Source of the DNA: Patescibacteria group bacterium
GTDB taxonomy: Bacteria > Patescibacteriota > CPR2 > UBA1875 > CAIMLA01
DNA length: 64,000 nt
Reading direction: 5' to 3'
Assembly: GCA_041738615.1 (NCBI GenBank)
Contig: JBGSPL010000001.1
Coordinates: forward strand, 92,071-156,070
Shown: in pieces, positions 4,482 through 21,080 of the stretch
Numbering within the stretch: the stretch's first letter is position 1
How the letters are laid out: every line of letters starts with the position of its first letter
Made by a program: the position numbers and the translations under genes
Notes under the pieces: generated by a model
What the model saw: the letters and a program-made list of their open reading frames with translations, nothing else
Databases searched by the model: none
Told to the model about the DNA's origin: nothing

Positions 4482-4487
4482 TGTCTA

Positions 4488-4511: not shown

Positions 4512-4692
4512 TCCTTACCACTTTTGGCAGCAAAAGTGGTGCAAAACTGCCGACTCCTTGCAAAATCGCAAGTGTCACTCCTACTTCATTCCCTCATAAA
4601 AACCAAAACTCACTGCGTTCAAACATTGTCTTTTATGATAGTCACTCAGGTCGTCGCTCGCTGTATTTTGCAGGTCGCGGTAAAAGAACTTC

Positions 4693-4729
4693 TACGTCAT
4701 TGCGAGGAGCGCAGCGACGCGGCAATCTC
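4693..4729 (+). repeat. direct repeat B, copy 1 (aagaact..tacgtcattgcgag..gcggcaatctc hairpin element)
   Basis: Matches 10243-10280 (aagaactatacgtcattgcgagcgagccgcggcaatctc). A member of the CGTCATYSC-plus-hairpin repeat family. Confidence 0.7.
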
Positions 4730-5318: not shown

Positions 5319-8300
5319 TTATGGTTTTGTTAGGTGAACAGTCTCCCCTGGCCTTAGCTCTTTGGCGACCACCTTGATTCGTTCGTGAGGTTCTATTGTC
5401 TTTAGGTTGTGAAAATCCTCTGGTGTGATCTGCTTCTCTATTTTTTCACGGTAAATAGGGGTTTCTTTGGGGTGGGAGACAGAGAGTAGCACGTCTTTGA
5501 TCTCGGCCAGGCTCTTCCCTATCGGCTCAGCCTGTACAGGTTTTTCTGGCTTAGGAGTTTCTTTTGGTTCTACTTTTTCGACCACTGCAGGCTGCTCTGC
5601 TGCTACAGGTTCTTTTGGGGTTTCTATTTTCTTCATTGGTGCCTCAGGTGCAGGTTTTCTGGTCTCTTCCTGGGGTTTTTCGGGCACGCTGACGGCCTTC
5701 TTTAGACTAGATAGTGTATCTACCCCAATTTTGTCTGCAATCGTCTCTCGCGCCTTCTCAGAGGGGGTGGCTTTGAGCTTGGTGAGTAGCTCTTCTAGGA
5801 TTGCTTTCGTATCTGTATGGTCCTCAACACCGAGGAACTTGCTTCCGCCTCCAAGACCAGCCCCGATGGCTTGTAGCTGATCGATCATTTCTGCAGTTGT
5901 ACCTACCCAGACGTCTGGAGCGCGACCGTCTCCAAAGAGATCGTGCTCGCGGGGCTCGTACATACTAATCTTTACTTCATAAATCTTCTGGCCATTCTTT
6001 TTGTAGTTATTGCCCTTTTGGCGACCACGCTTATCAGGGATGAGCCCCTCGGGTTTATTGTCTGGCAGGAAGACGTATTTATCGTCCTTATCTTTGTGGC
6101 GGACGATATAGTCGGCACTCTTCTCGAGCTCCGCGATTACTTTTTGTTTCTCGGTCATAGGTTTATCGGCTACTTTCTTCGTATTTTTAGTATTTGCAAT
6201 AATCGCAAGCTGCAAGTCGCTTTTCTTCTGGAGCTCGGAAGGCTTGCTGGCTGGTGGATTAATATTAGTTTCTTTCTTTTCTCGTAGCGGCTGCGTGGGG
6301 GCACTCCCCTGCTCAGATTTTTCGCGGATGATGGTAGGTTTTGGCTTGGTCATGATAGGATCGTCCTTCTCATTGGCGTTGATACCAGCGACCACTGAGT
6401 CCACGTTGTACCAGTGCTTTACCTCTTCCTCTACGATCTCCCGTTTCTTACCGTACTTTTCACGTGATACCGCCTTCACGATTGGAGAGCAGTCCTCTAT
6501 CATCTCAGGCGTGTTTAGGGACATTGCGGAGAAAGGGATACTGGTGACGCCATTGATCAGCATGTTTAGGTACATATGTCTGTTATCTAGGTTTATCAGA
6601 TCGTTTTGGGTAAATACCGGCTCAAATTCCTTCTCTAGGTAGGAGGCGTCAGTAGCCCCGACGCGGAAAGATACTAGCGTACCGACGTTACCAAAGACAG
6701 CGTCACGGACGGTTTCTTCCATCTGGGCAATGTACTGATTGGCTACGCAGAGAGATAAGCGATATTTACGCGCCTCAGAAAGAATAGTCGCAAAGGAGTC
6801 GGTGGCAAAGTTCTGGAACTCGTCGACGTATAGGTAAAAGTCCTTGCGTTCCTCTTCGGGGATGTAGGCGCGTTGCATCGCGGCAAGCTGCAGCTTGGTA
6901 ATAATCAGGCTTCCCAGCAGCTCGGAGTTTACCTCGCCAATCTTGCCTGTCGAGAGGTCCACTAGGAGAATCTTGCCTGTATTCATAATCTCGCCAAAGT
7001 CGATGCTGCTCTTGGGCTGGCCGACGATGTTGCGGATTATCGCAGAAGCCGTAAACTGCCCCACCTTATTTAGGATAGGAGCGACGGTTTCGGTGGCCAT
7101 CTTGTCATTGTAGGTCGAGAATTCCTTGAGCCAGAACATCTGCACTACTGGGTCTGTCACCTGTTCTACGATGCGCTTGCGATAGCCCTTGTCGGTAAGA
7201 AGGCGAACGATACCGAGCATGGTAGAGCCTTCGACTTCAGAGAGCGCTAGTACTGTATGGTTTAGGACGTATTCCAAACGAGGACCCCAGGAGTAGCCGA
7301 ACATACGCTTCAGTACTGAGATAAAGCCCTTGGCCGTTTCCTCGCGCATCCCCTCGGGGCTCTCTAGTGGATTGAATCCGATCGGGAAGTCCTTGTCCGC
7401 AGGGTTTAGGTAGATTACATCATCTATGCGTTCCTTCGGGATGTATTTCATGATCAGCTCTATTAGCTCGCCATGAGGATCCACGACAGCTACACCCTCG
7501 CCATTTATAATGTCGTTAATCGCAAGGTTTGCCATCATGCGTGATTTACCAACACCACTCTTACCGATGATGTACATGTGACGTCTGCGGTCGTCTCGAG
7601 TAATACCGAAGGTACGCTTGCCGTTACGGAAGGTCGTCGTGCCCATCGGAGTAAGCTCTATATCTACAGCATCCTCGGCATCGATTATGTGCAGGCTGCT
7701 TGGTGGCTCGCCCTTTTTGGACGAGGTCCACAAGATGTTTGGAGTCTCTACAGAAACGTGAGGCAAGTGGTATAGGCTGGCCAGCTCCTCGATGTTTAGT
7801 GTGTAGCCGTGGTTATTGAAAAGACGAGCACGGTAGGCGTCCAGAAAGTCCTGGCCTGTATAGAGCCCACTTCCCTGGAAACCGTTTAGATTAGTCGTAT
7901 TGAACTGTTTGAAGGCACCGATTACGGCCTGGATACGTTCCTTGGCCTTCTCGGGGCTCTTGGCGAGATAACAGATGCGGATGATTACCTTGTAGCCAAG
8001 CTTGTTGGCCTTCTCTTCAATTGCAGAGAGCTCCGTTTCCTCTGAGTGGGAAAGCTTCGGTACTTCCTTCTCCTTCTTCTCTTTTTCCTTTTTCTCCTTC
8101 TCTTCCTGCTTTTTCTTTTGCTCGGGGGTCATCGGAGAAATAACCGTATTTATCACATACGGAATCGCTTGCAATGGCATGATGAGGACGTCGATTAGTT
8201 TGTGAACCCAGGTATCTTCACCACCGGCCCCACCCTTTTTGCTAGCGATGTGCCCTAGGGAGCCATCTCTCCATTCGTCATCCACTGGCTTGGCGAGAAT

Positions 8301-8894
8301 TTGAATCCACACTTGCTCGCTCTTCTGCTCAATCTTGGAGAGCATTCCTGTGATTCCGGCTAGCGGGTCTACGTCAAAGTTTAGAAAGGTCTTAATCGGG
8401 TAGATTTCATCCTTCGTGAGGACCAACTCGGTTCCGACCACGGCGTCGTCTACCTTGTCGTCGTCGATATCGATATCTAGTGAGTAGTCAGGGACGGTAG
8501 TAATCTCTGCTGTCGGGTACTGGGCGTATACTTGCCCCTCTACAAAGTCCTTTAGATGGGTTGGTACCCAGATAAAGAACTCGATGGCATTGAGGGTCGA
8601 TACTATCTCGAAGCTCAGGTGCTCCTGTACCGAAAGTCCTTTCTTCTGCTGGCTCTTGGGATGTAAGATACCATGAAGAGCCGCGAGCATCATCTCCGCA
8701 GCTACCGGGCCTTTTTCGTTATTTTTAGGGATTTTGATCGAGAGAACGACCGTTTCAATCGCCTCGACATACTCTGCTTTTTTGTAGTTCTTCCAGGTGA
8801 GGTAGGCCATAATCGGTACTACTATCCACCATGTCCAAACCACGACGGACCACATGCCGCCGAGTATCGCCAGGCTAATATCTTGAATCAGCAC
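5319..8894 (-). CDS. type IV coupling-protein-like DNA translocase ATPase (TraG/VirD4/TraD family, FtsK/HerA superfamily) with N-terminal TM anchor and a roughly 420-aa low-complexity K/E/P-rich C-terminal tail
   Basis: 1191-aa protein. One or two N-terminal TM helices (ILGGMWSVVVWTWWIVVPIMAYLTW). Walker A is IIGKSGVGKSRMM and Walker B is YLYVDEFQNF. A coupling-protein C-terminal motif is present (ARKYRLSLCVANQYIAQMEE..FGNVGTLVSFRVG). There is a (KE)n run (KKQEEKEKKEKEKKEKE) and a PKE/PE-rich tail. Confidence 0.75.
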   Translation of the reverse strand: MLIQDISLAILGGMWSVVVWTWWIVVPIMAYLTWKNYKKAEYVEAIETVVLSIKIPKNNEKGPVAAEMMLAALHGILHPKSQQKKGLSVQEHLSFEIVSTLNAIEFFIWVPTHLKDFVEGQVYAQYPTAEITTVPDYSLDIDIDDDKVDDAVVGTELVLTKDEIYPIKTFLNFDVDPLAGITGMLSKIEQKSEQVWIQILAKPVDDEWRDGSLGHIASKKGGAGGEDTWVHKLIDVLIMPLQAIPYVINTVISPMTPEQKKKQEEKEKKEKEKKEKEVPKLSHSEETELSAIEEKANKLGYKVIIRICYLAKSPEKAKERIQAVIGAFKQFNTTNLNGFQGSGLYTGQDFLDAYRARLFNNHGYTLNIEELASLYHLPHVSVETPNILWTSSKKGEPPSSLHIIDAEDAVDIELTPMGTTTFRNGKRTFGITRDDRRRHMYIIGKSGVGKSRMMANLAINDIINGEGVAVVDPHGELIELIMKYIPKERIDDVIYLNPADKDFPIGFNPLESPEGMREETAKGFISVLKRMFGYSWGPRLEYVLNHTVLALSEVEGSTMLGIVRLLTDKGYRKRIVEQVTDPVVQMFWLKEFSTYNDKMATETVAPILNKVGQFTASAIIRNIVGQPKSSIDFGEIMNTGKILLVDLSTGKIGEVNSELLGSLIITKLQLAAMQRAYIPEEERKDFYLYVDEFQNFATDSFATILSEARKYRLSLCVANQYIAQMEETVRDAVFGNVGTLVSFRVGATDASYLEKEFEPVFTQNDLINLDNRHMYLNMLINGVTSIPFSAMSLNTPEMIEDCSPIVKAVSREKYGKKREIVEEEVKHWYNVDSVVAGINANEKDDPIMTKPKPTIIREKSEQGSAPTQPLREKKETNINPPASKPSELQKKSDLQLAIIANTKNTKKVADKPMTEKQKVIAELEKSADYIVRHKDKDDKYVFLPDNKPEGLIPDKRGRQKGNNYKKNGQKIYEVKISMYEPREHDLFGDGRAPDVWVGTTAEMIDQLQAIGAGLGGGSKFLGVEDHTDTKAILEELLTKLKATPSEKARETIADKIGVDTLSSLKKAVSVPEKPQEETRKPAPEAPMKKIETPKEPVAAEQPAVVEKVEPKETPKPEKPVQAEPIGKSLAEIKDVLLSVSHPKETPIYREKIEKQITPEDFHNLKTIEPHERIKVVAKELRPGETVHLTKP

Positions 8895-9977
8895 TTATTC
8901 CCTCCCGTTAGATACAGTATACGTTGCTCTCGCTACCCTTTTGAAGCGCTTTTTTTGTAGGTTTAGTAAAATAGTTGTTTCTTTTACCATGCGACGCTTG
9001 AGAACCTCAACAATAATGTCGTCCTTGTGCATTGGTCGCCCTGCTTCTACGAGGACAGTTTCGATCACTTCCTCGACCACGCCAGAGGCGTATCCCCACT
9101 CAGAGAGTGCGTAGATACCGCGACCGATCAGGACGAAGCGCTCATCACGAATCAGCTCGTTGTGAACGGCTTGCTTTGTCACATGCTTCTCTTTGCCACC
9201 AAAATTCTGGATATGATCGGCGATGGCTGTATAGTGCAGGGGCTTACTATGTTTCTTTAGAATGTAATAAGTCTTGTCCTTGATGCTCTTGGGGTTGATG
9301 TCACGCCAATGAGAAAGACCTAGATGACCAGACTCGGTACGCAGGATAACCTTGCTGATAGCAACGATAGCAACTATCGTCTTGGGCTCTAGTTCTTGGA
9401 CTACCTTGCGGATCTTGGCAACTAGCGATTTTTCCTCGACAGGTTTATCTTCGCTCTTAAGTATTGCAACTGCTTCCTTTAGGACCTTGTCGACTATCGT
9501 AGCTGTGATTGGCTCCGTGAAGTAGCTGCGATGCGCGTGATTGCTCTCGGTATATAGTGAGATATCACTTGAACAAGCGACGATAAAACTGAGCTGATGC
9601 TTTGCCTTGGCACTAGCGTTCTCCCCGAGGATACTATTGTCTAGAGTGGTGGCACGGACTACCCCGCCCTCGCTCTTTATAGCGCCGAGGATTACGGAAG
9701 AGATCTCCTGACCCCTCATGTCAGTAGAGACAAAGTCAGAGAGCTTCTTCAGGGTATTCTTCTCAATCTGGCGAACACGCTCTCGAGTAATTCCGAGCGC
9801 CTTCCCTATTTCTTCTAAAGTTTTTAGTTTGGCTCCAGAGAGCCCAAAGCGATCAGTGATAACTTCTTGGTCACGCTCTTTTTTTAGCTTTGGAGCAGCA
9901 AAAATAAACTCAACTTCTGCATTTACGTCGAGTTTTTGGCCTTTCATATTTGTATTTTGTGGGTTTGCTGTTTTCAT
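8895..9977 (-). CDS. DNA-binding protein: sigma-70 region-4 helix-turn-helix (N-terminal) plus HARE-HTH winged helix (C-terminal)
   Basis: 360-aa protein. The N-terminal segment [37 protein letters not shown] is a canonical sigma region 4.2 HTH. The C-terminal ..[17 protein letters not shown].. matches the HARE-HTH signature (compare B. subtilis RpoE delta GRFLALSDQTWGLRSW). Its stop abuts the start of the coupling-protein gene, consistent with one operon. Confidence 0.6.
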
Positions 9978-10053
9978 TTACAGTGCAATTATAGCACAAA
10001 AGACGCAATGCGTCAACGATTTTATAACACATTTATTCTATGCATTTTCTCAT

Positions 10054-10079
10054 GTCATTCCTGGTCGTAAGCCAGGAAC
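10054..10079 (+). repeat. hairpin repeat (gtcattcctggtcgtaagccaggaac)
   Basis: 7-bp stem (ttcctgg/ccaggaa) with a GTCATTCC lead. Nearly identical to the reverse complement of 25267-25293. Confidence 0.7.
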
Positions 10080-10112
10080 CCAAACTTTGCCTTGCTAAAG
10101 CAAGGCGCTCTC

Positions 10113-10136
10113 GATACTTTTGTCCATAGTCACAAA
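10113..10136 (+). repeat. direct repeat A, copy 2 (gatacttttgtccAtagtcacaaa)
   Basis: 23/24 identical to 4488-4511. Confidence 0.8.
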
Positions 10137-10242
10137 AGTATCCAAAAAGACACTTTAAATGCGGCGGTCTGCTGACCTTCGCAGTAGGTATTCGTCAATG
10201 TTTTATCTCTATCATAAAGCCATCAAGGCAGACACATCCATA

Positions 10243-10280
10243 AGAACTATACGTCATTGCGAGCGAGCCGCGGCAATCTC
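10243..10280 (+). repeat. direct repeat B, copy 2
   Basis: Matches 4686-4729, including the flanking aagaact. Confidence 0.7.
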
Positions 10281-10311
10281 TTCCCCCGCCATTTCAGCAT
10301 GGGCGGGAATC

Positions 10312-11034
10312 TTATCCCGCAAGGATTGTAGCTAGAAATATGACGGCCATACCGACTACGGTCATGATGGATGTCCATATGGCTGGATGTCGGTGGTGAC
10401 TCTCTGGTATGAGGTCACTGGCGCTAATATATAGATATAGGCCGATAAATACGGAGAGGATAAGTCCAAGGGTTGGCTCAGAGACGGTAAAGAAAAATGC
10501 CGCCGTAACACCTAGGGCTGGAGCTATAGCTACGGCCGCAAGCCACCTTAGGGTTTCCTTTCGGTCGCTCTCTTTGTTGAAAATCATACTTACAGTATTG
10601 ATTCCATCTGAAAAATCATGAGAAAGAACGGCTAATGCGACCACCCAACCGACGGTTGGTGAAACTTGGAATGCTAAACCGATACCAAGACCATCGAGAA
10701 AACCGTGGAGGATGAGGGCCGAGGCACCAAGCTTTCTATTGTGAGCCGGATTTTCACATTCATGGTCTTCAGAGTGTGCATGGATAGAGAAAAATCGGTC
10801 CAGAAGCATGAATATAGAGAAACCAACCGCGATAAGAACAGTTACAAGCTCTATGCTGTATCTGTCCTTTGTCAGATTCAGTGCTTCCGGCAGCAGATCA
10901 AAAAGTGCTACTCCGAGTACCGTACCGGCGCTGAACCCCAGGATCAGGTGGAGCTTGTCTTTTAGCTTAATCGCAAAGAGCCCACCTAGAGTGGTGCTGA
11001 CGATCGCTGCAATAGTAATGATAAATATAATCAT
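10312..11034 (-). CDS. ZIP-family divalent metal (Zn/Fe) transporter
   Basis: 240-aa protein with 8 TM helices, His-rich loop (HAHSEDHECENPAHNRK) and HGFLDGLGIGLAFQ / LSHDFSDGINT motifs typical of ZupT/ZIP. Confidence 0.8.
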   Translation of the reverse strand: MIIFIITIAAIVSTTLGGLFAIKLKDKLHLILGFSAGTVLGVALFDLLPEALNLTKDRYSIELVTVLIAVGFSIFMLLDRFFSIHAHSEDHECENPAHNRKLGASALILHGFLDGLGIGLAFQVSPTVGWVVALAVLSHDFSDGINTVSMIFNKESDRKETLRWLAAVAIAPALGVTAAFFFTVSEPTLGLILSVFIGLYLYISASDLIPESHHRHPAIWTSIMTVVGMAVIFLATILAG

Positions 11035-11103
11035 AGTTTTTTCTTCGCTGATGTTTCGTTCATGGCTTTATTCTACTCCCGTTTTGTGCTTAGGGCAAGG
11101 CAA

Positions 11104-11185
11104 TGAGAAGCGCCCCGGAGGGCGCTCTCGAGATGAGAACGTCCTACGGGGCGTGTGGTTAGCGCGGCTGGTAGGCGCTAGAAGA
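11104..11185 (+). repeat. about 80-bp gene-end repeat, copy 1 (contains palindrome gcgccc-cgga-gggcgc)
   Basis: Aligns with 11786-11868 (4 mismatches over 52 bp, then a degenerate tail). The stop codon of ORF 11178..11717 falls inside it. Confidence 0.8.
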
Positions 11186-11717
11186 AGGTCTTCGCGATAC
11201 GCGGATCGACCTTTCGAGATTCGTCGATACCTCCGAAGTGGGGATTCTCTATTGTGGCCTGATAAGCACCCCAGAGCCTGTTCCCTTCTTCTTCGGTGAT
11301 GCTGACGATGATGTCGCTGGCACTGTAGCCCACTCTACCTATCGTAGTCTTGAATGAGCAGGTTGCGTACCAGACGTCAGTGGTCGGGTAATTCTCCCTT
11401 TCATTGCCAGTGTCATCTATCCGGCTGTAGGCCGGAACGTGGGCTATCTGTTCTACCCGCAGGTGGGTTTCTCGCTTCAACGCTTCGGTGGCATATGCCA
11501 CCGACTTATCGAGTACTTTCTGTGCCCACCGGTTGAAGGCCTTTGCGACTCCCTTCCAGAAGTAGTTTGCCACCACGATCATGCAGATCATGGCGATGAC
11601 GATGAAAGCTGCTTTCGGTGTGAACACGGTTCGACCTCCAGTCGGTCCGAGGATGCTAACAAAGGCACCTGCTGATTTGCTCGGAGATATAATAACATAA
11701 TATTCCAATATAGTCAA
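11178..11717 (-). CDS. hypothetical protein with one predicted TM helix (GC-rich island)
   Basis: 179-aa ORF with a TM segment (AAFIVIAMICMIVVANYFW) and no recognisable domain. GC content well above the window background. Confidence 0.4.
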   Translation of the reverse strand: MTILEYYVIISPSKSAGAFVSILGPTGGRTVFTPKAAFIVIAMICMIVVANYFWKGVAKAFNRWAQKVLDKSVAYATEALKRETHLRVEQIAHVPAYSRIDDTGNERENYPTTDVWYATCSFKTTIGRVGYSASDIIVSITEEEGNRLWGAYQATIENPHFGGIDESRKVDPRIAKTFF

Positions 11718-11785
11718 TACAAAGTAGGCCGCAGCTGCATTGGGCTTCTATCCAGCACGACATGAGTACTTGTGTCGAGATTACC

Positions 11786-11868
11786 ATGAAAAGCGCCCCG
11801 TAGGGCGCTCTCGTGATGAGAACGTCCTACGGGGCGTGATGTGGCCCGGACTTCTAGGCGAAATCCAT
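11786..11868 (+). repeat. about 80-bp gene-end repeat, copy 2 (palindrome gcgccc-cgta-gggcgc)
   Basis: See copy 1. The stop codon of ORF 11854..12231 falls inside it. The stem is preserved while the loop differs. Confidence 0.8.
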
Positions 11869-12231
11869 GGCTTCTTGGTTGTCTCCACTGGCATGCAGAA
11901 TGCGCATCAGGTTTGCGACCATTCCGGTCTCCGGGAACCCCTTCGGCTGGAAGGGACCTTTGGGCCGCAGGTCCGGAGGGAGCTCGTGCGGACCGCTGGT
12001 GTCCTTGCGGACGGTAGGACCGAGAGCTTCCCCACCGATAGCGATGGTAGGGACGATCCGATGTCTCTCGGCAAGGCTGCGACGCTTTTCTTTCCGTGCG
12101 TCGCGACGCGCCTCGGCCGCAAGGTGTTCCCGCCTAGCAGCAGCTACGAAAACCTGCTCGAGCTGTTCCACCGATTTGGCCGGATTCCGATTACTCGGGT
12201 GTCTCGCCTTATTGCGGTTCTTCTTCGTCAC
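11854..12231 (-). CDS. hypothetical basic protein (GC-rich island)
   Basis: 125-aa ORF with a Lys/Arg-rich N-terminus (MTKKNRNKARHPSNRNPAK). GC-rich. Competing overlapping ORFs exist on both strands, so coding status is uncertain. Confidence 0.35.
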   Translation of the reverse strand: MTKKNRNKARHPSNRNPAKSVEQLEQVFVAAARREHLAAEARRDARKEKRRSLAERHRIVPTIAIGGEALGPTVRKDTSGPHELPPDLRPKGPFQPKGFPETGMVANLMRILHASGDNQEAMDFA

Positions 12232-12253
12232 AGCTATACCCCCTCGGTAGAGC

Positions 12254-12631
12254 TTACGATGTCGTGTCGGTAGTCCAGACGCCGATTCCCTTGTTCTTGG
12301 CGTACCAGACCGGCTGGCCAGTGGCCTCAGGCAGCTCGCTCGAGCGAACTAGGCTCCAACGCTCGTTGCCGTTTTTGGCGACTCGACAGTAGGCACTGAC
12401 GTTCACCGAGATGCGGCCGGTCTCATCGGACTGGATGATTGCCACCCTCTCGTTCACGGAAACCAAGGTACCCTCGATGAGGATCAGGTTGTCCTTGTGA
12501 TGGCGGGCCGGCTGCCGACCATGTTGGCTCGCGGGCTCTGCCAGTACTACCTCGGTCTTCGCTGAATCACGCTTGCCGGGGACACTAGATACCCAGCCTT
12601 GGTGCTTTCCCACGAGGAACCTCCTACACAT
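12254..12631 (-). CDS. hypothetical protein (GC-rich island)
   Basis: 125-aa ORF lying 22 bp upstream of the previous one on the same strand. No domain recognised. Confidence 0.35.
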   Translation of the reverse strand: MCRRFLVGKHQGWVSSVPGKRDSAKTEVVLAEPASQHGRQPARHHKDNLILIEGTLVSVNERVAIIQSDETGRISVNVSAYCRVAKNGNERWSLVRSSELPEATGQPVWYAKNKGIGVWTTDTTS

Positions 12632-12707
12632 CGGCTACGGTGTAGGTATTATATACAAAAAAGACGTAATTACAAGAGAATATCTATGTTATATCGGCTA
12701 TTATGGC

Positions 12708-12736
12708 TTGACAAAAGTGTTACAGGGTTGTAATAT
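12708..12736 (+). promoter_or_regulatory. sigma-70-type promoter (TTGACA-17-TAATAT)
   Basis: TTGACA at 12708-12713, a 17-nt spacer, and TAATAT at 12731-12736. It lies about 90 nt upstream of ORF 12827 in an AT-rich divergent intergenic region. Confidence 0.6.
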
Positions 12737-12826
12737 CGGAAGCCTTATCTTGCTTCGTTTGTTGGGGCAGGATCACATATACTTCAGTTACATATTTGTC
12801 GGGACGATGCACGGGAAGGGAATCTC

Positions 12827-13153
12827 ATGTGTGCTTCGGGTAAGACGCTCGCGCAGGTCAATGTCGTGGTACCTATCGCAATCCTCGGGGTTAGAAGCAC
12901 CGCGGTGGCCGCTGCAGATGCTTACGCTTTGCAGCAGTCGATGTGGGGCCGTCACGCCGCCGAGTTTGCGAGGGTTCTCGGAGACGAGGTAACATCTGCG
13001 GATGTTGCTATCAGCGTCGAGCCTACCGACTCGTCCACGATCAGCGCTACCGTGAATCACGGGAACGCGTGCAAGTCGCAGCAGCTCGCCGAGTACGTCG
13101 AGGAGGTCCTGACCTTCGGCTTTGGCCGACCGGTAGCGGTTTTCGCCATCTAG
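12827..13153 (+). CDS. hypothetical protein (GC-rich island)
   Basis: 108-aa ORF with a GGGAAGGGAA ribosome-binding site before the ATG and the consensus promoter upstream. No domain recognised. Confidence 0.35.
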   Translation: MCASGKTLAQVNVVVPIAILGVRSTAVAAADAYALQQSMWGRHAAEFARVLGDEVTSADVAISVEPTDSSTISATVNHGNACKSQQLAEYVEEVLTFGFGRPVAVFAI

Positions 13154-13249
13154 ATCGGCCGCGCAGTAGCTATGGAGTATTTGAGACCCGGAACGGAAGG
13201 AACCTGAACTGGTTTATCCGGTTCGGGTCTCTTTCCGTTAAGCTAGATA

Positions 13250-14338
13250 CTATTGTGACTCGTTTTTCTTGGCCATGGCAATAGCTGGGATACCAGCAAG
13301 TTGTACGATACCGCCAACAAGCCAGGCGAATGGTATACTGATTGCTTTGGACATATAGCCAAAACCAAGCTGACCGATAGTTCCCCCACCGTCTGCAAAA
13401 AGTGCATCCAAAGAGATTAGGGTGGCTCTTTCCGATGATGGTATTACACTATTGAACCAGGTAGCCTTTACTGGTCCCAGAATACCAAAAGCAGTTGTTG
13501 CTAGTATGTAAAGACCGACCGCGAGGTAGAAGTCGCCGGCGATAGCGGCCCCGATTATTGCAACGGCTTGTATAAAGATCAGTATTTTAATTAGGCTTGC
13601 ACGCTCTTTTACGATCTCCGTTGCCTTCTTTACCAGTAGGTTGCCTAGTATCTGGGAAAGGCCTATGAGAGCTGCAATGACTCCGGAGACCCATACCAGG
13701 TTTTGATTCAGAAGGTCTAGAAAATATTTTTGCCAAGAGTAGAAGCCGTAGATGAAGAAGAGGCTTTGCGCGAAGGTGGCAAACATGAGGTAGCGTGCCG
13801 TTTTGTTTTGCAAACCATATTGTGTCCCGACCCTTGCTATCCTGGCAGTCTCAGCTCCGAATTGTGATATTTGGAATTTTTTTGGAGTAAATCCGATATC
13901 TTTCATAAAGAAGAGGCCTAGCAAAAAGGCTGGTATGAGGAGTACGGCTCGTGCTATATAAGGCAATACTAGCTGATATTGCCCAAGCAAGCCCCCCGCG
14001 ACAGTACCAAGTAGCATGGAGATACCAAATACTACACCAGCACGGGCAAAGATTATTTCGATTTTGCCTTTGTAGTCTATCGATTTCAGGGCGTCTATCA
14101 TCCAAGCGTCTACCGCTCCTGTGTAGAAGGTAAAGCCAAGCCCTAGTAGGACTGATGATAGCATAAAGAGTAGAATTCCCCCGTGGACGAACCCAACATA
14201 ACCATACAAGAGAGTGGAGATAAGTATGATGGCAACCGAAAGGAGGTATGAGGTTCGCCGTCCTAGCGTATCTGCCACGACTCCGGTAGGAACCTCGAAA
14301 ACTACCTGGCCTGCGGTAAACGCCGCATTTATAATCAT
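13250..14338 (-). CDS. MFS transporter
   Basis: 362-aa protein with about 12 TM helices. The N-terminal motif VADTLGRRTSYLL (MFS motif A, G-R-R) is present. Confidence 0.8.
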   Translation of the reverse strand: MIINAAFTAGQVVFEVPTGVVADTLGRRTSYLLSVAIILISTLLYGYVGFVHGGILLFMLSSVLLGLGFTFYTGAVDAWMIDALKSIDYKGKIEIIFARAGVVFGISMLLGTVAGGLLGQYQLVLPYIARAVLLIPAFLLGLFFMKDIGFTPKKFQISQFGAETARIARVGTQYGLQNKTARYLMFATFAQSLFFIYGFYSWQKYFLDLLNQNLVWVSGVIAALIGLSQILGNLLVKKATEIVKERASLIKILIFIQAVAIIGAAIAGDFYLAVGLYILATTAFGILGPVKATWFNSVIPSSERATLISLDALFADGGGTIGQLGFGYMSKAISIPFAWLVGGIVQLAGIPAIAMAKKNESQ

Positions 14339-14373
14339 ATCATGTCTACTTTCGTTTATTGCGCGGATCGCAG

Positions 14374-15120
14374 TTATTTATACAGATCTTGGTAATTTAG
14401 CCAACCTGCAAGTTCTCTCTGATTTTGGACGTAACCACGGCATTCTATACCACTGCCGATGTGGATGCCCAGATGTAGGTGCTTTCTTTCTCCTGCGGTC
14501 TGGGTGCTGTATCCAGCACCAAGATTTGCAACGAAATCTCCCCGTACAACGGTATCGCCATTTGAAAATGTAGCGGATGTGACATCAACGTGGCCATATA
14601 GTACAGTTACTACCTGCTCTGAAATAGTACAGCCTAGTATTACAACCCCTCCGTAACCGTCTACAATCCCTTTGTATCTGACAGTTCCATCACAGATGGC
14701 TTTTGTTGGTATGGGTGTGTTCGCTTCTGATATGGTGGCTTCGAAATCCGTCCCTGTATGAAAGCCAGTAAACTTCTCAGGCTGGACAAGAGATTTAGCC
14801 GGGGTGACGTATGTGCCAAAAAGTTTTTTTGTAATCCGGGAGACGGGGTTGTCTATGGGCTCAGATACGGTCTTAATCTCGGCCGGTTTCACAATGGGTA
14901 AGCTCTTCTCCTTGGAAAAAGTCTTGCCATTCACCACGCACTTCGACGGATTTGAATTTTGTACCTGCAGACCAGCGGCAACGCATCCGTCATAGCTGCC
15001 TATCTGGCTCTTCTTGTAGAGCCCGTATCCGTATATAGCAAGCAGGGCCAATGGTATTACTAGGAGTAGAACCACAGCCCTTTTTATGAAGAAATTGTGA
15101 ATATTATTCCTTAGATCCAT
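14374..15120 (-). CDS. M23-family (LytM-like) peptidoglycan endopeptidase
   Basis: N-terminal TM/signal segment, then HTGTDFEA (HxxxD) and HLHLGIH (HxH) metal-ligand motifs. Confidence 0.75.
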   Translation of the reverse strand: MDLRNNIHNFFIKRAVVLLLVIPLALLAIYGYGLYKKSQIGSYDGCVAAGLQVQNSNPSKCVVNGKTFSKEKSLPIVKPAEIKTVSEPIDNPVSRITKKLFGTYVTPAKSLVQPEKFTGFHTGTDFEATISEANTPIPTKAICDGTVRYKGIVDGYGGVVILGCTISEQVVTVLYGHVDVTSATFSNGDTVVRGDFVANLGAGYSTQTAGERKHLHLGIHIGSGIECRGYVQNQRELAGWLNYQDLYK

Positions 15121-15187
15121 ATGTATATTTTACCACTCATTGATAGGGCTTCATCGGCTAGCTCTAAATTCAAGCTGTAAGATATAG

Positions 15188-16495
15188 CTATTTCTTTATG
15201 TCTCTCAGTCCATCTAACCGTTTTTTAATCTCGGCCTCTCCCCCGTTCTCTGTCGGTTTGTAGTATTTCTTGTCGATTAGCTTTGGGGGTAGGTAGTCTT
15301 GTTTCACGTGATGTCCAGGATAGTCATGAGGGTACTTATACCCAGATGATTTTCCTTGCATTTTATCGAAAGTTGTTGGTGCATTTACAATATGCTTCGG
15401 GACGCCGCTAAAGGCTTCGCTTCGCACGTCTCCAAGGGCCGCATCGATTGCTAGATATGAGGCGTTGGATTTGGGGGCACTGGCCAGATAGGTCACACAC
15501 TGGGCGAGGTTGATGCGGGCCTCTGGGAGGCCAATCTTCGTCACTGCCTCGAAGGTAGCGTTTGCAAGAACTAGTGCCATAGGGGCTGCGTTGCCGATAT
15601 CCTCGGAGGCAAATACTAGCATCCGGCGAGCGATAAATTTGGGATCTTCCCCGCCCTCAATCATGCGCGCTAGCCAGTAGATGGCCGCATCTGGGTCACT
15701 GCCGCGCATCGATTTGATAAATGCAGAGATGATGTCGTAGTGATTTGCCCCACCCTTATAGGCGCTAACAAAACGTTTGCTGAGGGCCTGCTCCACAACT
15801 TCTTGAGTAATTTTGTTGTTCACAAGCTTTGCCTTGGCGGCAATCTCTAGAGAGTTTAGGGCGACGCGAGCATCCCCTGCCGAGAAGGCAGCAAGCTGGT
15901 CCACGGCCTTCTTCTCAATCTTCAGTTTCTGCTCCCCGAGACCGCTGATCTTGTTTTTTAAGGCAAGGGCGATAATGTTGCGAATGTCATCTTCTGTGAG
16001 GGGCTTTAGCTCAAAGAGTTTGGAGCGCGACATGATGGCAGAGTTTATCTCGAATCCTGGGTTCTCGGTAGTAGCGCCGATGAGGACGATAGTGCCATTT
16101 TCGATATGCGGCAAGAAGCCGTCCTGCTGGCTCTTGCTGAAGCGGTGAATTTCGTCCACAAAGAGGACGGTCTTTTGCTGGTAGAGCTCACGTCTTTCGC
16201 GAGCTTCCTTGACCACACGGCGTAGGTCTGCAATCCCACTGGTCACAGCGCTAAACTCCTCGAAGTGGCTCTTGGTCTGGTTTGCGATAATCCTTGCAAG
16301 CGTTGTCTTGCCCGTCCCTGGTGGTCCCCAGAGGATGATGGAACCTAATGTGTCATTCTCTATAAGCTGTCGAAGCAAGGCCCCCTCGCCCACAATCTCC
16401 GCTTGCCCATAGAAATGTGCAAAGTCCGTCGGGCGCATCCTCTCCGCCAGCGGTTTGTGGGCATTGTTATTATCAAAAAGTGATTTTGCAGTCAT
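15188..16495 (-). CDS. rarA: replication-associated recombination protein A (AAA+ ATPase MgsA/RarA)
   Basis: LWGPPGTGKTTLARIIA Walker A, DEIHRF Walker B, and a conserved MgsA C-terminal domain. 435 aa. Confidence 0.9.
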   Translation of the reverse strand: MTAKSLFDNNNAHKPLAERMRPTDFAHFYGQAEIVGEGALLRQLIENDTLGSIILWGPPGTGKTTLARIIANQTKSHFEEFSAVTSGIADLRRVVKEARERRELYQQKTVLFVDEIHRFSKSQQDGFLPHIENGTIVLIGATTENPGFEINSAIMSRSKLFELKPLTEDDIRNIIALALKNKISGLGEQKLKIEKKAVDQLAAFSAGDARVALNSLEIAAKAKLVNNKITQEVVEQALSKRFVSAYKGGANHYDIISAFIKSMRGSDPDAAIYWLARMIEGGEDPKFIARRMLVFASEDIGNAAPMALVLANATFEAVTKIGLPEARINLAQCVTYLASAPKSNASYLAIDAALGDVRSEAFSGVPKHIVNAPTTFDKMQGKSSGYKYPHDYPGHHVKQDYLPPKLIDKKYYKPTENGGEAEIKKRLDGLRDIKK

Positions 16496-16649
16496 AAGCT
16501 CATTCTAGGGGAAAGCTTTCGCTGTTTCAAGTAGACAGCGCCAGTCATGCCCCTCATGAATGTATTGACAAAATGTACTCAATATACTATAATGTTGCAC
16601 GATAAGTTGTACCCGCAAAAGCAAGTTCGAGGTCTCGGGGGGAGACAAA

Positions 16650-17261
16650 ATGAACACCAGTAAGCCTGATCTTCAGCTTGTATTGGCTGCCCGCGAGGGC
16701 GACCAAGACGCTTATGACGAGATATTTCGGCGTTACCGGGGGCTCGTTCGATCCAAGACCCGCAGCTACTTCTTGGTAGGTGCAGACCGCGATGACGTGA
16801 TCCAGGAAGGCAATGTCGGCCTTTGCAAGGCCGTTTGGGACTACTCTCCCGACAAGGGAGCTTCGTTCCACAGTTTTGCCGAGCTTTGCGTGACGCGTCA
16901 GGTCATCACGGCGGTGAAAGGAGCGACTCGCAAGAAGCACCACCCGCTCAACGGATACGTTTCGCTCAGTAGAACGGTTGATCACAACGACGAAGGTGAT
17001 CGTGTTCTGAGCGATGTGCTCACAGGTGATTTTCTCGCATTTTCCGCGGAGGATGTCTGCCTGGCGGCGTTGTCACGAGAGGCGGTGTTCTCGGGACTTG
17101 CAGAGTCTCTAACACCTCTGGAGGCGGGCGTACTTCGTCTCTACCGTGCTGGCCGTACCTATGACCAGATTGGCTTGGAACTCAATGCTCCGCCCAAGCG
17201 GGTAGACAACGCCTTGCAGCGAGCCAAACGCAAGATGGAAGCTCTGATAAGAGCAAACTGA
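16650..17261 (+). CDS. sigma-70-family RNA polymerase sigma factor, SigH-like
   Basis: 203-aa protein with region 2 (DDVIQEGNVGLCKAVWDY) and region 4 (LTPLEAGVLRLYRAGRTYDQIGLEL). The FHSFAELCVTRQVITAVKGATRKKH stretch closely resembles Bacillus SigH. Locally GC-rich. Confidence 0.7.
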   Translation: MNTSKPDLQLVLAAREGDQDAYDEIFRRYRGLVRSKTRSYFLVGADRDDVIQEGNVGLCKAVWDYSPDKGASFHSFAELCVTRQVITAVKGATRKKHHPLNGYVSLSRTVDHNDEGDRVLSDVLTGDFLAFSAEDVCLAALSREAVFSGLAESLTPLEAGVLRLYRAGRTYDQIGLELNAPPKRVDNALQRAKRKMEALIRAN

Positions 17262-17325
17262 CCCACTTCTGAGTGGCTCCGAGAGGACCTACCCGGCAGT
17301 GGGTTCTTTCGTATTTAGAGCTCTA

Positions 17326-17544
17326 TTATAGTTCGGGACAAGCGCTAAACTCACACTTAGGACCTGTGCGGCTGACGTAGCTGCCGTCAGGACATTGCTT
17401 CGCCTCCATAGTGCAGGCAACCCCGCCATTTGGCGGCGTAGGGCTTTCTTTGGTTGGCTGTTTCATGAGGAGGATGCCGCCAATTACAAGTAGCAAAAAT
17501 AGCACCGCAGTGAGAAGTGAGAAAAACAGTTTCTTGTAGTCCAT
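17326..17544 (-). CDS. small secreted/membrane-anchored Cys-rich peptide
   Basis: 72-aa protein with an N-terminal hydrophobic helix, then 4 Cys (CTMEAKQCPDGSYVSRTGPKCEFSAC). Its ATG lies 1 nt after the stop of the upstream 32-aa ORF. Confidence 0.45.
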   Translation of the reverse strand: MDYKKLFFSLLTAVLFLLLVIGGILLMKQPTKESPTPPNGGVACTMEAKQCPDGSYVSRTGPKCEFSACPEL

Positions 17545-17545
17545 C

Positions 17546-17644
17546 TTAGCTAGGGTTAACGCTCGAAGTTACCTGGATGCCCTTCGGCTTTTTTGCCTTC
17601 TTTGGTTTCTTCACGTTCTTTTGTGAATCTTTTCCTTTAGCCAT
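17546..17644 (-). CDS. 32-aa Lys-rich peptide (MAKGKDSQKNVKKPKKAKKPKGIQVTSSVNPS)
   Basis: Not in the ORF track. A GGAGGGG ribosome-binding site lies 4 nt before the ATG. The gene is tightly coupled to the downstream 72-aa gene and sits in an otherwise empty 190-bp gap after topA. Confidence 0.3.
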   Translation of the reverse strand: MAKGKDSQKNVKKPKKAKKPKGIQVTSSVNPS

Positions 17645-17731
17645 GTTCCCCTCCAATTGATTAAGTTCAAAATAATTATCTATATTATACGCTTTTCCCC
17701 TCTGTGCGGGAATGGAAGAAAGCGACTGAGA

Positions 17732-19891
17732 TTACGCCCTATGCGGGTTATGCCCGAGACATTCCTTGTCGCTGCAGCGCTCGGGAATGGTCTTGGTCCC
17801 TTCCATCATCAGCGAGCCACAAATCTTGCAAATATTACCGGTAGGCTTGGCCTTAATGGCGTATTTGCACTTAGGGTAATTGTTACATGAGTAGAATACA
17901 CCAAAGCGACCACGTTTCTCTGTCATCTCGCCCTTTTTACATTTCGGACAAGCGACGCCGGTGCCTCCAGCTTTTTCTTCGTTCTCGTCCTTGCGGATGT
18001 ACTTACACTTAGGGTAGTTGCTGCAGGAGATAAACTTGCCGTACTTGCCTTCACGTTCGATGAGGGCTCCACCACATTCTGGGCAGGATTCCCCTATCTC
18101 CTTGGGGCCCTCCATCTCTCGACCCTCCATAGTCAGGGCGCCTTCGCACTCTGGGAACCGGGCGCAACTCATGAATTTTCCATTTTTCCCCAGCTTGATA
18201 ATCATGTCGCTACCACATGTCGGGCACTTGTACTGAGGGTCGGCAGGCACCGGCTCTGCTGGCCGGGCAGTCTCTTCTTTTACTCGATCACGGAAAAGTC
18301 CGTAAAAATCGGATAGTATCTGGGCATATTTTGCCTGACCATTGGAAACTAAGTCTAGCTCGTCTTCCATTTCAGCGGTAAACGTGTCGCTAATGTACTC
18401 GGCAAAGTACTTCTCGAGGAAACTACTGACTACGTCACCAGTGTCTGTAGGAAAGAGGGTTCGCCCTTCTTTGGTAACGTATCCCCTATCTTCGATGGTC
18501 TTCATGATGCTAGCGTAGGTACTCGGGCGGCCAATACCACGTTTTTCGAGCTCCTTGATCAGTCCCGCCTCGGTGTAGCGTGATGGTGGCTCGGTTTGCT
18601 TTGCAAAAGTAATAAAGTCGATAAGTCTCAGCGGTTCGCCTTCTGTTACTACAGGTAGCATCACTTCCTCGCCCTTGGCGGCCGGGTCTGCGAGGAGCCA
18701 TCCCGGAAATTGTAATTGGCTGCCGTTGGCTGTAAATGCCGGCATTAGCTTGTCGGTGGTGTATGTTGCCGTAATCTTGCTGCGTAACATCCTAGCATCT
18801 GCCATCTGACTAGCAACAGTGCGGGACCAGAGGAGCTGATAGAGCTTCTTCTGCTCTTCATTATGTCCAGCGTGCTCATGTTCGAAGTTGGTGGGGCGAA
18901 TAGCCTCGTGCGCTTCCTGGGCATTCTTGCTGTTGGTTTTGTATACATGCGGTGACAGAAATTCCTTACCGTACTTGGCGGTAACTACATCTTTGATCTG
19001 GCCTACTGCTGTCTCGGAGAGATTGGTGCTGTCTGTACGCATGTAGCTGATGAGACCAGCCTCGTAAAGTTTCTGAGCGACTCCCATAGTACGAGAAGGT
19101 GAAAAACCAAGCCTTGTACTCGCTGTCTGTTGCAAGGTAGAGGTGGTAAAAGGTGCCTTAGGGGCGCGTTTTGCCTCGGCACTACTAACCTTGGATACCT
19201 TCCACTCACCAGCAGTTGCTACCCGCTCTATCTCGTCTAGACGCTCTTGGCTCCTCGGCTCCTCGGTACATATAAGTGAAAGTTTGGCGCCGGAGTTAGT
19301 TTTTGTTTCTGCGGTAAGGGTCCAGAAGTCCTCAGAGATAAAGGCGCGAATCTCGCGCTCGCGTTCCATGATGATGCGCAACGCAGGTGATTGTACACGG
19401 CCTGCAGACAGACCATAGCGGACTTTCTTCCAGATCACACCAGAGAGGTCGTACCCAACCAGGCGGTCTAGTATTCGTCGCGCTTGCTGGGCATCCACGA
19501 GATCCATATTGATCTTGCGTGGGTTGGAAGCGGCCTTCTCTACTGCGCCTTTGGTAATCTCGTGGAATTCGATGCGGTCGTAATCTTTATCTTTTAGTTT
19601 TAGAACCTCTGCGAGGTGCCAGGAAATCGCCTCCCCTTCGCGGTCCGGGTCGGTAGCGAGCAGAACCTTGTCTGCTCCAGCAGCCGCGGCTCGAAGCTCA
19701 CGGACTGTTTTGCTCCCCCTGGGAGTCATGATGTATTTTGGTTTAAAACCGTGCTCTACATCTACGGCGTCCTTGTTGCTTTTCGGCAAATCACGAACAT
19801 GGCCAAAAGAGGCCATCACTTTATGTCCTGGTCCGAGATATTTTTCTATTGTCTTTCCCTTTGCGGGTGACTCAACGATTACTAGCTTCAT
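17732..19891 (-). CDS. topA: DNA topoisomerase I
   Basis: TOPRIM N-terminus (MKLVIVESPAKGKTIEKYLG), topo IA core, and four C-terminal C4 zinc ribbons. Confidence 0.92.
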   Translation of the reverse strand: MKLVIVESPAKGKTIEKYLGPGHKVMASFGHVRDLPKSNKDAVDVEHGFKPKYIMTPRGSKTVRELRAAAAGADKVLLATDPDREGEAISWHLAEVLKLKDKDYDRIEFHEITKGAVEKAASNPRKINMDLVDAQQARRILDRLVGYDLSGVIWKKVRYGLSAGRVQSPALRIIMEREREIRAFISEDFWTLTAETKTNSGAKLSLICTEEPRSQERLDEIERVATAGEWKVSKVSSAEAKRAPKAPFTTSTLQQTASTRLGFSPSRTMGVAQKLYEAGLISYMRTDSTNLSETAVGQIKDVVTAKYGKEFLSPHVYKTNSKNAQEAHEAIRPTNFEHEHAGHNEEQKKLYQLLWSRTVASQMADARMLRSKITATYTTDKLMPAFTANGSQLQFPGWLLADPAAKGEEVMLPVVTEGEPLRLIDFITFAKQTEPPSRYTEAGLIKELEKRGIGRPSTYASIMKTIEDRGYVTKEGRTLFPTDTGDVVSSFLEKYFAEYISDTFTAEMEDELDLVSNGQAKYAQILSDFYGLFRDRVKEETARPAEPVPADPQYKCPTCGSDMIIKLGKNGKFMSCARFPECEGALTMEGREMEGPKEIGESCPECGGALIEREGKYGKFISCSNYPKCKYIRKDENEEKAGGTGVACPKCKKGEMTEKRGRFGVFYSCNNYPKCKYAIKAKPTGNICKICGSLMMEGTKTIPERCSDKECLGHNPHRA

Positions 19892-19985
19892 AACTAAGGA
19901 CTAATGGTACTGGTTAAAGCGGGTGGTGTCAAATCTTTGAAAACTTTGTATAAATGTTTTATTCAATTGCTGCTAGCGATTAATC

Positions 19986-21080
19986 TCAAAAGTTTAAGCG
20001 AAAGACGTTGCCACCGAGCTGTTTCACCTTTGCCGATATTTCCATAATGGTGACAGTGGAACCTACCACGCTCTGCGAAAGACCTGTCTCTTTGATGATG
20101 TCATCTATATGTTTCGGCTCAGCACGCAGGCATTCTATAATTATTGTTTCTTCTGGAGTGTTTCCGGCGATTTTGCGGATGGAGGCTACGGCCTCGGGGC
20201 AAGTAATCCCAAATTCGTCCAGGACATCTTGGGCGCTGGTGCAGACATGGGCTCCGTTGCGGATCAAGTTGTTTGTTCCCCTACTGTTTAGGTTGAAGAT
20301 ACTTCCTGGTACCGCAAAGACCTCCCGGTTTTGGTTCAGTGCCGCAAGAGCCGTAATCAAGCTTCCGGAACTCTCCGCGGCCTCTGTAACCACTAAACCT
20401 TGAGAAATGCCGCTGATAATCCGGTTTCTAGCCGGGAAATTGTATTTTGCAGGGATGGTGTCAAAGGGAAACTCGGTAATGATGGCTCCACCTTGTGCAA
20501 TAATTTCTTTGGCCACACCCAAGTTACTACTGGGATAGATTCTACCTAGTCCGCACCCGAGCACAGCTATTGTAATCCCGCCTTCGTTAATGGTAGCTTG
20601 ATGTGCGATAGCATCTATGCCCAGGGCGAGCCCGCTGACTATCGTAATCCCACTAGCGGCAAGGTCGGAGGCTAGCTTCTCGGTAGCGCGAACGCCATAA
20701 TCGGTGAGCCTCCTACTGCCGACAATCCCAACGCAGAGTGCATTTAGATCTGCAGACCCCTTCTTGTATAAGATAAACGGAGGGTCGTATATTTGGAGTA
20801 ATATTTGGGGAAAATCGTTTTCAAAGATAAATATTGGTTCTATTTCGTTGCCACGCAGCTCCTGTAGCACTTTTTCTGGAGTGTATTTCTCGCGGGCAAC
20901 GATCAGCTCGCGCATACAACGTTCGCTGAGACCAAGTGACCCCAGCTTGGCTTTCGGGTAAGAAAAGAGCTCCTCGATAGGAATGTTGAGAGCGTAGAGT
21001 TGGTGAAAAAGAGCAGCGGTAAACCGGACGTTTCTACCTAAAGTAAGCCAATATTTATAGTCTTCCAGTGACTTTTCCAC
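19986..21080 (-). CDS. dprA: DNA processing protein DprA (Smf)
   Basis: Rossmann-like DprA core (GSRRLTDYGVRATEKLASDLAASGITIVSGLALGIDAIAHQ). Start placed at the GTG at 21080, which is preceded by GGAGGG. The ORF track's longer N-terminus (to 21206) looks non-native. Confidence 0.8.
   Translation of the reverse strand: MEKSLEDYKYWLTLGRNVRFTAALFHQLYALNIPIEELFSYPKAKLGSLGLSERCMRELIVAREKYTPEKVLQELRGNEIEPIFIFENDFPQILLQIYDPPFILYKKGSADLNALCVGIVGSRRLTDYGVRATEKLASDLAASGITIVSGLALGIDAIAHQATINEGGITIAVLGCGLGRIYPSSNLGVAKEIIAQGGAIITEFPFDTIPAKYNFPARNRIISGISQGLVVTEAAESSGSLITALAALNQNREVFAVPGSIFNLNSRGTNNLIRNGAHVCTSAQDVLDEFGITCPEAVASIRKIAGNTPEETIIIECLRAEPKHIDDIIKETGLSQSVVGSTVTIMEISAKVKQLGGNVFRLNF

Follow-up and report, generated by a model that had tools for sequence, protein, structure and literature searches.

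The DNA considered here is a 64-kb window (64,000 nucleotides, nt, taken at its full length) of contig JBGSPL010000001.1 from a Patescibacteria group bacterium. Between a ZIP metal transporter gene and a major facilitator superfamily (MFS) transporter gene lies a GC-rich stretch of about 2.1 kb (11103-13235) that carries four small open reading frames (ORFs) arranged in three units and divided by short AT-rich spacers. Its GC content is 55.9% versus 47.6% in the remaining window, with 400-nt peaks of 0.59-0.62, and it ranks first among all 2.1-kb stretches of the window in both GC content (z 3.9) and tetranucleotide distance (z 5.0). A jump in base composition had been noted earlier from the letters alone (hereafter the sequence-only reading) and is confirmed, the background of roughly 45% given then being slightly low. 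The GC content at third codon positions (GC3) of the four ORFs also differs from that of the surrounding genes, at 0.67-0.73 against a window-wide mean of 0.52 (standard deviation 0.07). The stretch is unlikely to be an assembly chimera, since window positions 10123-22613 agree at 100% identity with an independent assembly, Logan SRR28170474. The features of the stretch, with the ORFs referred to as o149, o125a, o119 and o108, are as follows.

11103-11177, minus strand: copy 1 of a direct repeat, at the left edge of the GC-rich stretch (stem 11111-11153, -38.7 kcal/mol, z -4.8)
11178-11627, minus strand: o149, an orphan starting with GTG at 11627 behind GGAGG
11689-11717, minus strand: promoter-like site of o149, TTGACT-17-TATTAT with a TG extension, 10/12 matches
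11786-11860, minus strand: copy 2 of the repeat, beginning at the o125a stop codon (stem 11794-11836, -40.5 kcal/mol, z -5.8)
11854-12231, minus strand: o125a, an orphan and the second gene of a two-gene unit, starting with GTG at 12231 behind GAGGGGG
12254-12613, minus strand: o119, an orphan with GC3 of 0.73, starting with GTG at 12613 six bases after AGGAGG
12648-12675, minus strand: promoter-like site of the o119-o125a unit, TTGTAA-16-TATAAT, 10/12 matches
12708-12736, plus strand: promoter-like site of o108, TTGACA-17-TAATAT, kept in the related loci L056 and L058
12737-12826, plus strand: conserved 5′ leader of o108, about 90 nt
12827-13153, plus strand: o108, 108 amino acids, acidic, starting with ATG at 12827 behind GGGAAGGGA
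13183-13231: hairpin in the gap where the o108 and MFS genes converge (-41.5 kcal/mol and z -3.4 on the plus strand, z -2.3 on the minus strand)

Start codons were chosen from Shine-Dalgarno sites and from the gene calls of the independent assembly. All four ORFs of the sequence-only reading are present, but two have shorter real starts than it gave them: the ORF of 179 amino acids becomes o149, and one of the two with 125 amino acids becomes o119. The 149-residue reading of o149 is favoured because the TTG start of the 179-residue reading falls inside the gene's own promoter-like site. The codon-position GC of o119 (GC3 0.73) and o108 (0.72) is consistent with genuine coding in a style of roughly 60% GC. 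Opposite o125a, an antisense ORF of 177 amino acids has similar codon-position GC, but it crosses the hairpin and lacks start signals; start signal, spacing and hairpin favour the minus-strand o125a.

The genes fall into three compact predicted units, o119-o125a, o149 and the divergent o108, each with a near-consensus sigma-70 promoter, a strong Shine-Dalgarno sequence and a GC-rich hairpin. These would be the transcription units used in the cell, their promoters and terminators being predicted from consensus matches or fold energies. The promoter scan returned three sites at 10/12 matches, 4.0 +/- 2.0 being the expectation over all sites in the region. It recovered the o108 site that had been picked out earlier as a textbook promoter, and the homologous module of another metagenome has TTGTCA-17-TAATAT. 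The two minus-strand promoter-like sites (12675-12648 and 11717-11689) and a direct repeat of 75 nt go beyond what had been noticed before. The o119 and o125a genes, small and adjacent, with the start of o125a 22 nt past the o119 stop, are predicted to share one promoter and one terminator. Stable hairpins (z -3.4 to -5.8) lie immediately 3′ of stop codons, as in genes that have terminators of their own, and would act as terminators with short U tracts (CUUUUCAU, CUUCUCAUU). The hairpin at 13183-13231, also listed in the sequence-only reading, is real as judged by its z-score of -3.4, and it probably terminates both o108 and the MFS gene. The same layout of promoter, Shine-Dalgarno sequence, ORF and hairpin is found in the related loci L057, L056 and L053.

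A further unit of this style lies elsewhere in the window (62155-63115, minus strand). It has an 11/12 sigma-70 promoter with a TG extension (63115-63087), a lipoprotein-like orphan ORF of about 252-255 amino acids (62193-62951/62960) with an LLLTSGC motif and a GC3 of 0.77, and a GC-rich hairpin (about 62155-62185) immediately 3′ of the stop codon. The ORF has no Pfam match.

The 75-nt direct repeat (11103-11177 and 11786-11860) forms 19-bp, GC-rich and nearly perfect stems directly behind the o149 and o125a stop codons. The sequence of the 70-nt hairpin element that it contains is CACGCCCCGTAGGACGTTCTCNNNNCGAGAGCGCCCTNCGGGGCGCTTT. Copy 1 is 96% identical over 53 nt to positions 2374-2425 of L057, the locus of the closest relative, and copy 2 is 93% identical over 70 nt to positions 2358-2426 of the same locus. 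In L057 the element sits behind an unrelated ORF of 129 amino acids, and at 93-96% identity it is more conserved than the core of the two genomes (82%; binomial p ~0.003-0.01). The attC core motifs RYYYAAC and GTTRRRY are absent on both strands around the three copies of the element, and a reading of the repeat as an integron attC site was rejected for this lack of core sites. Similar hairpins, ending in CTTTCAT like the window element, stand behind two small GC3-rich cassettes in L053 (7590-7660 and 8960-9030), one of which encodes a STAS domain.

None of the four ORFs has a recognisable domain, as had been proposed, since matches to Pfam, NCBIfam, PHROG and PADLOC are all below significance. 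Among 5.8 billion clustered proteins, o119 and o125a match their own copies only, and a full HMMER search of 1.84 billion representatives with o149 returned its own copy and weak matches inflated by repeats. Against sequences of the Protein Data Bank (PDB) the four ORFs gave nothing significant (best E 0.55). They likewise have no match in 50,697 phage records, IMG/VR or 72,556 plasmids, the single row, between o149 and a phage lipase gene, being non-significant (E 0.2); BFVD likewise gave no match. Rfam has no match in the island, the o108 leader or the hairpins.

The predicted o149 product has a transmembrane helix at residues 6-24, followed by a helical region and a beta-rich region. A relation of o149 to DUF5801/RTX proteins was rejected: the match to a protein of 4071 amino acids (E 1.6e-10) adds up 17 identical repeats with 27% identity apiece over 51 residues, and o149 compared with DUF5801 directly gives no match. 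Matches of o149 to an Rz-like spanin, TrbL or ABC_membrane are non-significant (E 0.008-0.2) and are explained by the single transmembrane helix and helical segment. The o119 product has a basic N-terminal tail and a beta-rich core; a single-sequence AF2 model of it was discarded (mean pLDDT 34). The o125a product is very basic (isoelectric point 10.7), hydrophilic with low hydropathy, and appears largely disordered. Its similarity to an antisense ORF of L058 (PTIAIGGE/PTITVGGE, pairwise E 0.011) was too short and was not used. The predicted product set would thus comprise a membrane-anchored o149, a co-transcribed basic pair (o119 and o125a) and an acidic alpha+beta protein with a hypervariable loop (o108).

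The o108 gene is the only one in the island with homologues. They form one family from JGI metagenomes (P0003/P0018 and a variant at L060) with 48-57% identity. The pairwise ratio of nonsynonymous to synonymous substitution rates (dN/dS) is about 0.3, compared with 0.04-0.13 for core genes, which argues that o108 is a real gene under purifying selection that evolves faster than the core. Its predicted fold is beta-alpha-beta-beta-alpha-beta, ferredoxin-like (AF2 pLDDT 77, pTM 0.66), with generic fold matches only. Differences between the variants, including a deletion of 20 residues in the window copy, cluster between the third strand and the second helix. The unit is conserved from the -35 box to the terminator in other metagenome contigs, and the sequence on either side is unrelated. 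Promoter and leader are 83% identical to those of the homologous module, compared with about 69-73% for the coding part, and a block of 23 identical nt runs across the -10 box and 17 nt into the leader. From the two sequences compared, this conservation suggests a regulatory leader or an operator. In the L059 lineage an o108 homologue is found at the same hot spot and agrees with the window copy in position and orientation, at a synonymous divergence (dS) of about 1.

A dispersed element of about 150 nt was seen at window positions 23450-23602, in the gap between der and a D-Ala-D-Ala carboxypeptidase gene, at L056 819-954 beside the o108 homologue, and at L059 6351-6498 in the gap between the ArsP_2 and sigma-like genes. 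Its copies are 77-79% identical between genomes, and its consensus fold has four pairs with compensatory changes. The one Rfam match, to CRISPR-DR57, was below threshold (18 bits where the gathering score is 39, E 0.25) and was judged to be chance. The element thus has no counterpart among Rfam families and may represent either a small RNA not yet described or a handle for recombination.

Nine informative related loci were gathered by scanning metagenomes with the sigma-like protein encoded next to the stretch and by looking up cluster members. The simplest relatives (L050 and L052) have the order MgsA-M23-ArsP_2-sigma-like-T4CP, the ArsP side of which is also seen in L047 and L049, and they point to MgsA-M23-ArsP-sigma-like-T4CP as the ancestral order. 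ArsP_2 stands at the ZIP position in L057, L059 and L053; at this position L047, L049, L050 and L052 have an ORF of 281-285 amino acids that was assigned to ArsP_2 by size and place, without a Pfam test. The closest relative, L057, is 82% identical at the nucleotide level over window positions 1-10193, and homology ends at about 10193; the core of L059 is only 76% identical to the window. What fills the variable region differs between the loci.

10193-14373 of the window: variable region from the M23-peptidase gene to the sigma-like gene, containing ZIP, a truncated MFS gene and, in between, the four orphan ORFs
L057: a 605-residue protein, GC3-rich ORFs of 129 and 183 amino acids, and a type III restriction-modification system
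L059, L058 and L056: an ORF of 148 amino acids, the o108 homologue, ORFs of 127 and 73 amino acids, an SNase nuclease and a type II restriction-modification system
L053: an orphan of 113 amino acids and an ORF encoding a STAS domain, both followed by a similar hairpin with CTTTCAT at its end
L048: about ten small genes and Ddl, followed by ZIP

None of the relatives examined, L057 among them, has the GC-rich stretch at the syntenic place, and at 90% identity the protein clusters of its four ORFs contain the window genome's own copies only. The small cassette ORFs at the hot spot have a GC3 of 0.67-0.80 in all ten cases from three lineages, compared with 0.45-0.54 in neighbouring host genes and 0.28-0.37 in the restriction-modification and nuclease genes; two more hot-spot ORFs in L053 have values of 0.68-0.69. 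The relatives carry type II (L059) and type III (L057) restriction-modification systems and SNase at this place, and the window ORFs match no PADLOC model. No recombinase was found in the gene lists or among Pfam-annotated genes within about 10 kb, nor at a relative's locus, and phage structural, replication or integrase genes were equally absent within about 10 kb. There is no tRNA gene nearby (the nearest is at 32061). The idea of a target-site duplication at the island edges was rejected, as none was found and the longest word shared by the edges is 6 nt.

The T4CP gene (1191 amino acids) and the sigma-like gene are bracketed as a pair by a 24-nt inverted repeat (4488-4511 and 10119-10142). 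In L057 the inverted copy is 176 nt long (9547-9718) and synteny ends 50 nt past the right arm; the Logan contig ends inside the right arm (10123). The segment between the arms may be invertible, or the arms may serve as a shared operator. A sequence of 28-29 nt, present in the window as an inverted pair (38874-38902 and 38920-38947), has an exact or nearly exact match at L059 6302-6330, between ArsP_2 and the sigma-like gene.

The two transporter genes that flank the GC-rich stretch have histories of their own.

10312-11034, minus strand: ZIP metal transporter, 240 amino acids, Pfam Zip (2.7e-22)
13250-14338, minus strand: MFS transporter, with a Pfam MFS_1 match that begins at profile position 37

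The sequence-only reading had placed the island between the zip and mfs genes, but a picture of stable flanks with an island dropped in between does not hold, as both are variable: synteny ends at about 10193, most relatives have ArsP_2 instead of ZIP, and the MFS gene is in none of the relatives examined. ZIP is part of the variable region and replaces ArsP, because the homology with L057 stops at about 10193; in L048 a ZIP of 83% identity occupies the same place. The MFS gene starts at an internal methionine and is without about 42 N-terminal residues, corresponding to the first transmembrane helix, that are present in homologues from Thermoleophilia metagenome-assembled genomes (MAGs). Among 185,579 species genomes its closest relatives are from Thermoleophilia and other Actinomycetota MAGs, at 56-62% identity, and the flanks of the Thermoleophilia MFS loci (70% GC) share nothing else with the window. 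The MFS start is only 35 nt from the M23 stop, and this junction looks like a recombination breakpoint. With a host-like GC3 of 0.47, the MFS gene has a history that differs from that of the GC-rich ORFs; it is likely an old acquisition across phyla that was broken at the M23 junction. Far from the hot spot, a 1-kb segment of raised GC content (41001-42000, 53.8%) adjoins tRNA-Gln and holds an ORF (41053-41403) with a non-coding-like GC content of 0.62 at second codon positions; it has no Rfam match at gathering thresholds.

The GC-rich stretch is probably strain-specific cargo that was imported into a recombination hot spot of a small-genome bacterium, as moron-like units from a pool of GC3-rich cassettes. 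The hot spot lies between the M23-peptidase gene and the ArsP or ZIP, sigma-like and T4CP genes. Its cargo in the window would consist of three self-contained units. In each of them, one or two small GC3-rich ORFs would be preceded by an AT-rich, near-consensus sigma-70 promoter and a strong ribosome-binding site and closed by a GC-rich hairpin terminator. The units would be drawn from a stock of small cassette genes with a GC3 of 0.67-0.80, which are found at this hot spot in related genomes too and turn over rapidly, and they would arrive or be replaced by recombination between taken-up DNA and either the conserved flanks or short repeats. There is unlikely to be a dedicated integrase, because there is no recombinase in the annotated neighbourhood, no tRNA and no target duplication, and the MFS flank is a broken gene; for these reasons, and because attC core sites are absent, recombination of taken-up DNA is the most likely route. 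Our best guess for the products, based on the restriction-modification and nuclease genes of relatives at the hot spot, is that they are accessory envelope or conflict proteins. Horizontal acquisition, which had been proposed from composition and orphan content, is upheld by the outlier composition, by the three of four ORFs that match only themselves and by the absence of the stretch from all relatives examined; the donor and the type of element suggested at the time fare worse, as set out below.

Several points weigh against this interpretation. The phage, plasmid and IMG/VR collections yielded neither a donor nor a mobile element with these cassettes, and the sampled relatives are few. The presence of o108 at the same place, in the same orientation and with the same GC3 at dS of about 1 fits long residence as well as repeated import. 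The sequence-only reading had named conservation with the same composition in all relatives as contrary to acquisition, and this is partly borne out, since the o108 module is conserved in composition, place and orientation in one other lineage. The promoters and terminators are predictions from consensus and folding energy. Composition cannot by itself tell o125a from its antisense ORF, and three of the ORFs, o149, o125a and o119, have no homologue from which selection could be gauged.

Among the other explanations, an origin of the units as morons or remnants of some temperate phage or plasmid that lives in these bacteria, has a GC content of about 58% and has so far escaped sampling comes closest, though we consider it unlikely. 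The hot spot would then be where such elements recombine. The layout of promoter, ORF and terminator and the deviant GC content match textbook morons (PMC3594210), the GC3 is uniform in unrelated cassette ORFs from several lineages, the terminator element is repeated, and small orphan proteins are typical of phage accessory genes. Yet the surrounding 10 kb or so is devoid of phage structural, replication and integrase genes, and the 50,697 phage records, IMG/VR, BFVD and 72,556 plasmids hold no match. The IMG/VR match of the 129-residue cassette of L057 (36% over 59-66 residues, on a contig of 35% GC) was judged to be chance. A high-GC donor was the first suspect of the sequence-only reading, and recent direct transfer from a high-GC actinobacterial host of an epibiont, by uptake and illegitimate recombination, would account for an MFS gene that is closest to those of Thermoleophilia and other Actinomycetota (56-62%, in loci of 70% GC) and that is truncated exactly at the M23 junction, as illegitimate recombination predicts. 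The GC content of the island above that of the genome and a nearby DprA gene point the same way. The four ORFs themselves, however, have no actinobacterial homologue among the 5.8 billion proteins (nor o149 among the 1.84 billion, by full HMMER), and their GC3 of 0.67-0.73, too low for a donor of 70% GC, goes together with AT-rich intergenic promoters that such donors do not resemble. The hairpin and the o108 promoter and leader module are common to related low-GC small genomes and not to Actinomycetota, and the support from the MFS gene is indirect, as this gene has a host-like GC3 and its Thermoleophilia counterparts share no flanks with the window. We rate this transfer as decidedly unlikely.

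That the ORFs are native, fast-evolving genes of the lineage, with a high GC3 caused by selection or a local mutational process instead of acquisition, seems improbable. It would explain why o108 keeps its place, orientation and GC3 in a lineage at dS of about 1, and why a similar GC3-rich unit exists elsewhere in the window (62155-63115). But L057, with 82% core identity, is without all four ORFs at the spot and the clusters at 90% identity hold own copies only; the neighbours of o108 are wholly different between lineages, and the hairpin element is more conserved than the core. Least likely of all is a reading of o119 and o125a as toxin and antitoxin of a type II system, with the island serving in addiction or defence. 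Two small adjacent genes 22 nt apart, with one predicted promoter and one predicted terminator, a very basic second product and restriction-modification systems at the same hot spot in relatives would suit such a pair, but Pfam, NCBIfam, PADLOC and PHROGs gave no match to any family of toxins, antitoxins or defence proteins, PDB sequences gave none either, both products are basic so that an acidic partner is missing, and o125a appears largely disordered. A toxin-antitoxin or phage-derived cassette, which the sequence-only reading had held equally possible, thus finds no positive evidence in the family, phage and plasmid collections.

Set beside known systems, the units resemble morons, which are independent promoter-gene-terminator units with deviant GC content inside a prophage (PMC3594210). 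The island units share with them their own sigma-70-type promoter and hairpin terminator (both predicted), deviant GC content and small uncharacterised products, and at least o108 moves or persists as a discrete module from promoter to terminator. Unlike morons, they lie outside a prophage, with no phage genes within about 10 kb and no match in phage collections, and several of them stand side by side in a chromosomal hot spot. The site itself is like plasticity hot spots and defence islands in being fixed, with lineage-specific cargo that includes type II and type III restriction-modification systems and a nuclease and whose composition deviates both upwards and downwards from the genome; it differs from them in that integrase, tRNA and flanking direct repeats are lacking and the window cargo has no defence gene recognisable by PADLOC. 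A classical genomic island would show the same deviant composition and absence from close relatives, but also an integrase, a tRNA target and flanking direct repeats, which were not found here. As in integron arrays, small unrelated ORFs stand one after another, and an imperfectly palindromic 70-nt element, shared by two of them, comes next to their 3′ ends; in contrast to such arrays, RYYYAAC and GTTRRRY cores are absent, the 19-bp stem is nearly perfect, the ORFs have predicted promoters of their own and there is no integrase within about 10 kb. Gene transfer from host to epibiont is known for Saccharibacteria, and the window resembles that case in having, in a small genome, an MFS gene closest to Actinomycetota that adjoins foreign-looking DNA. 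The resemblance extends to this neighbouring gene only, the four GC-rich ORFs having no link to Actinomycetota.

On present evidence, the locus is therefore a variant of known things, namely plasticity hot spots and moron-like units, and not a new kind of system; what is unusual about it are the orphan proteins and the uniform, unexplained GC3-rich signature. It is a long shot that the locus represents an undescribed cassette system of Patescibacteria, in which modules from a dedicated GC-rich reservoir are shuffled into one fixed place of the chromosome beside the T4CP and sigma-like gene pair, with the 70-nt hairpin and the 150-nt repeat as handles and with products that are effectors or immunity proteins directed against the host bacterium or phages. 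If true, such an effector or immunity role would explain the rapid turnover and the hypervariable loop of o108.

Bacteria with reduced genomes that depend on a host are thought to have little room for accessory DNA. Here, one precise site is mapped at which several related lineages swap cargo that includes restriction-modification systems, transporters and small orphan genes. The hairpin element that is more conserved than the core, together with the uniform GC3-rich cassettes across lineages, hints at an unsampled mobile reservoir. The practical value of the finding is modest until a function or a donor is found. It also singles out a few strain-specific proteins with a possible role on the cell surface or in conflict with the host or with phages, and the hot spot offers a concrete place to study how genes are acquired in reduced genomes.

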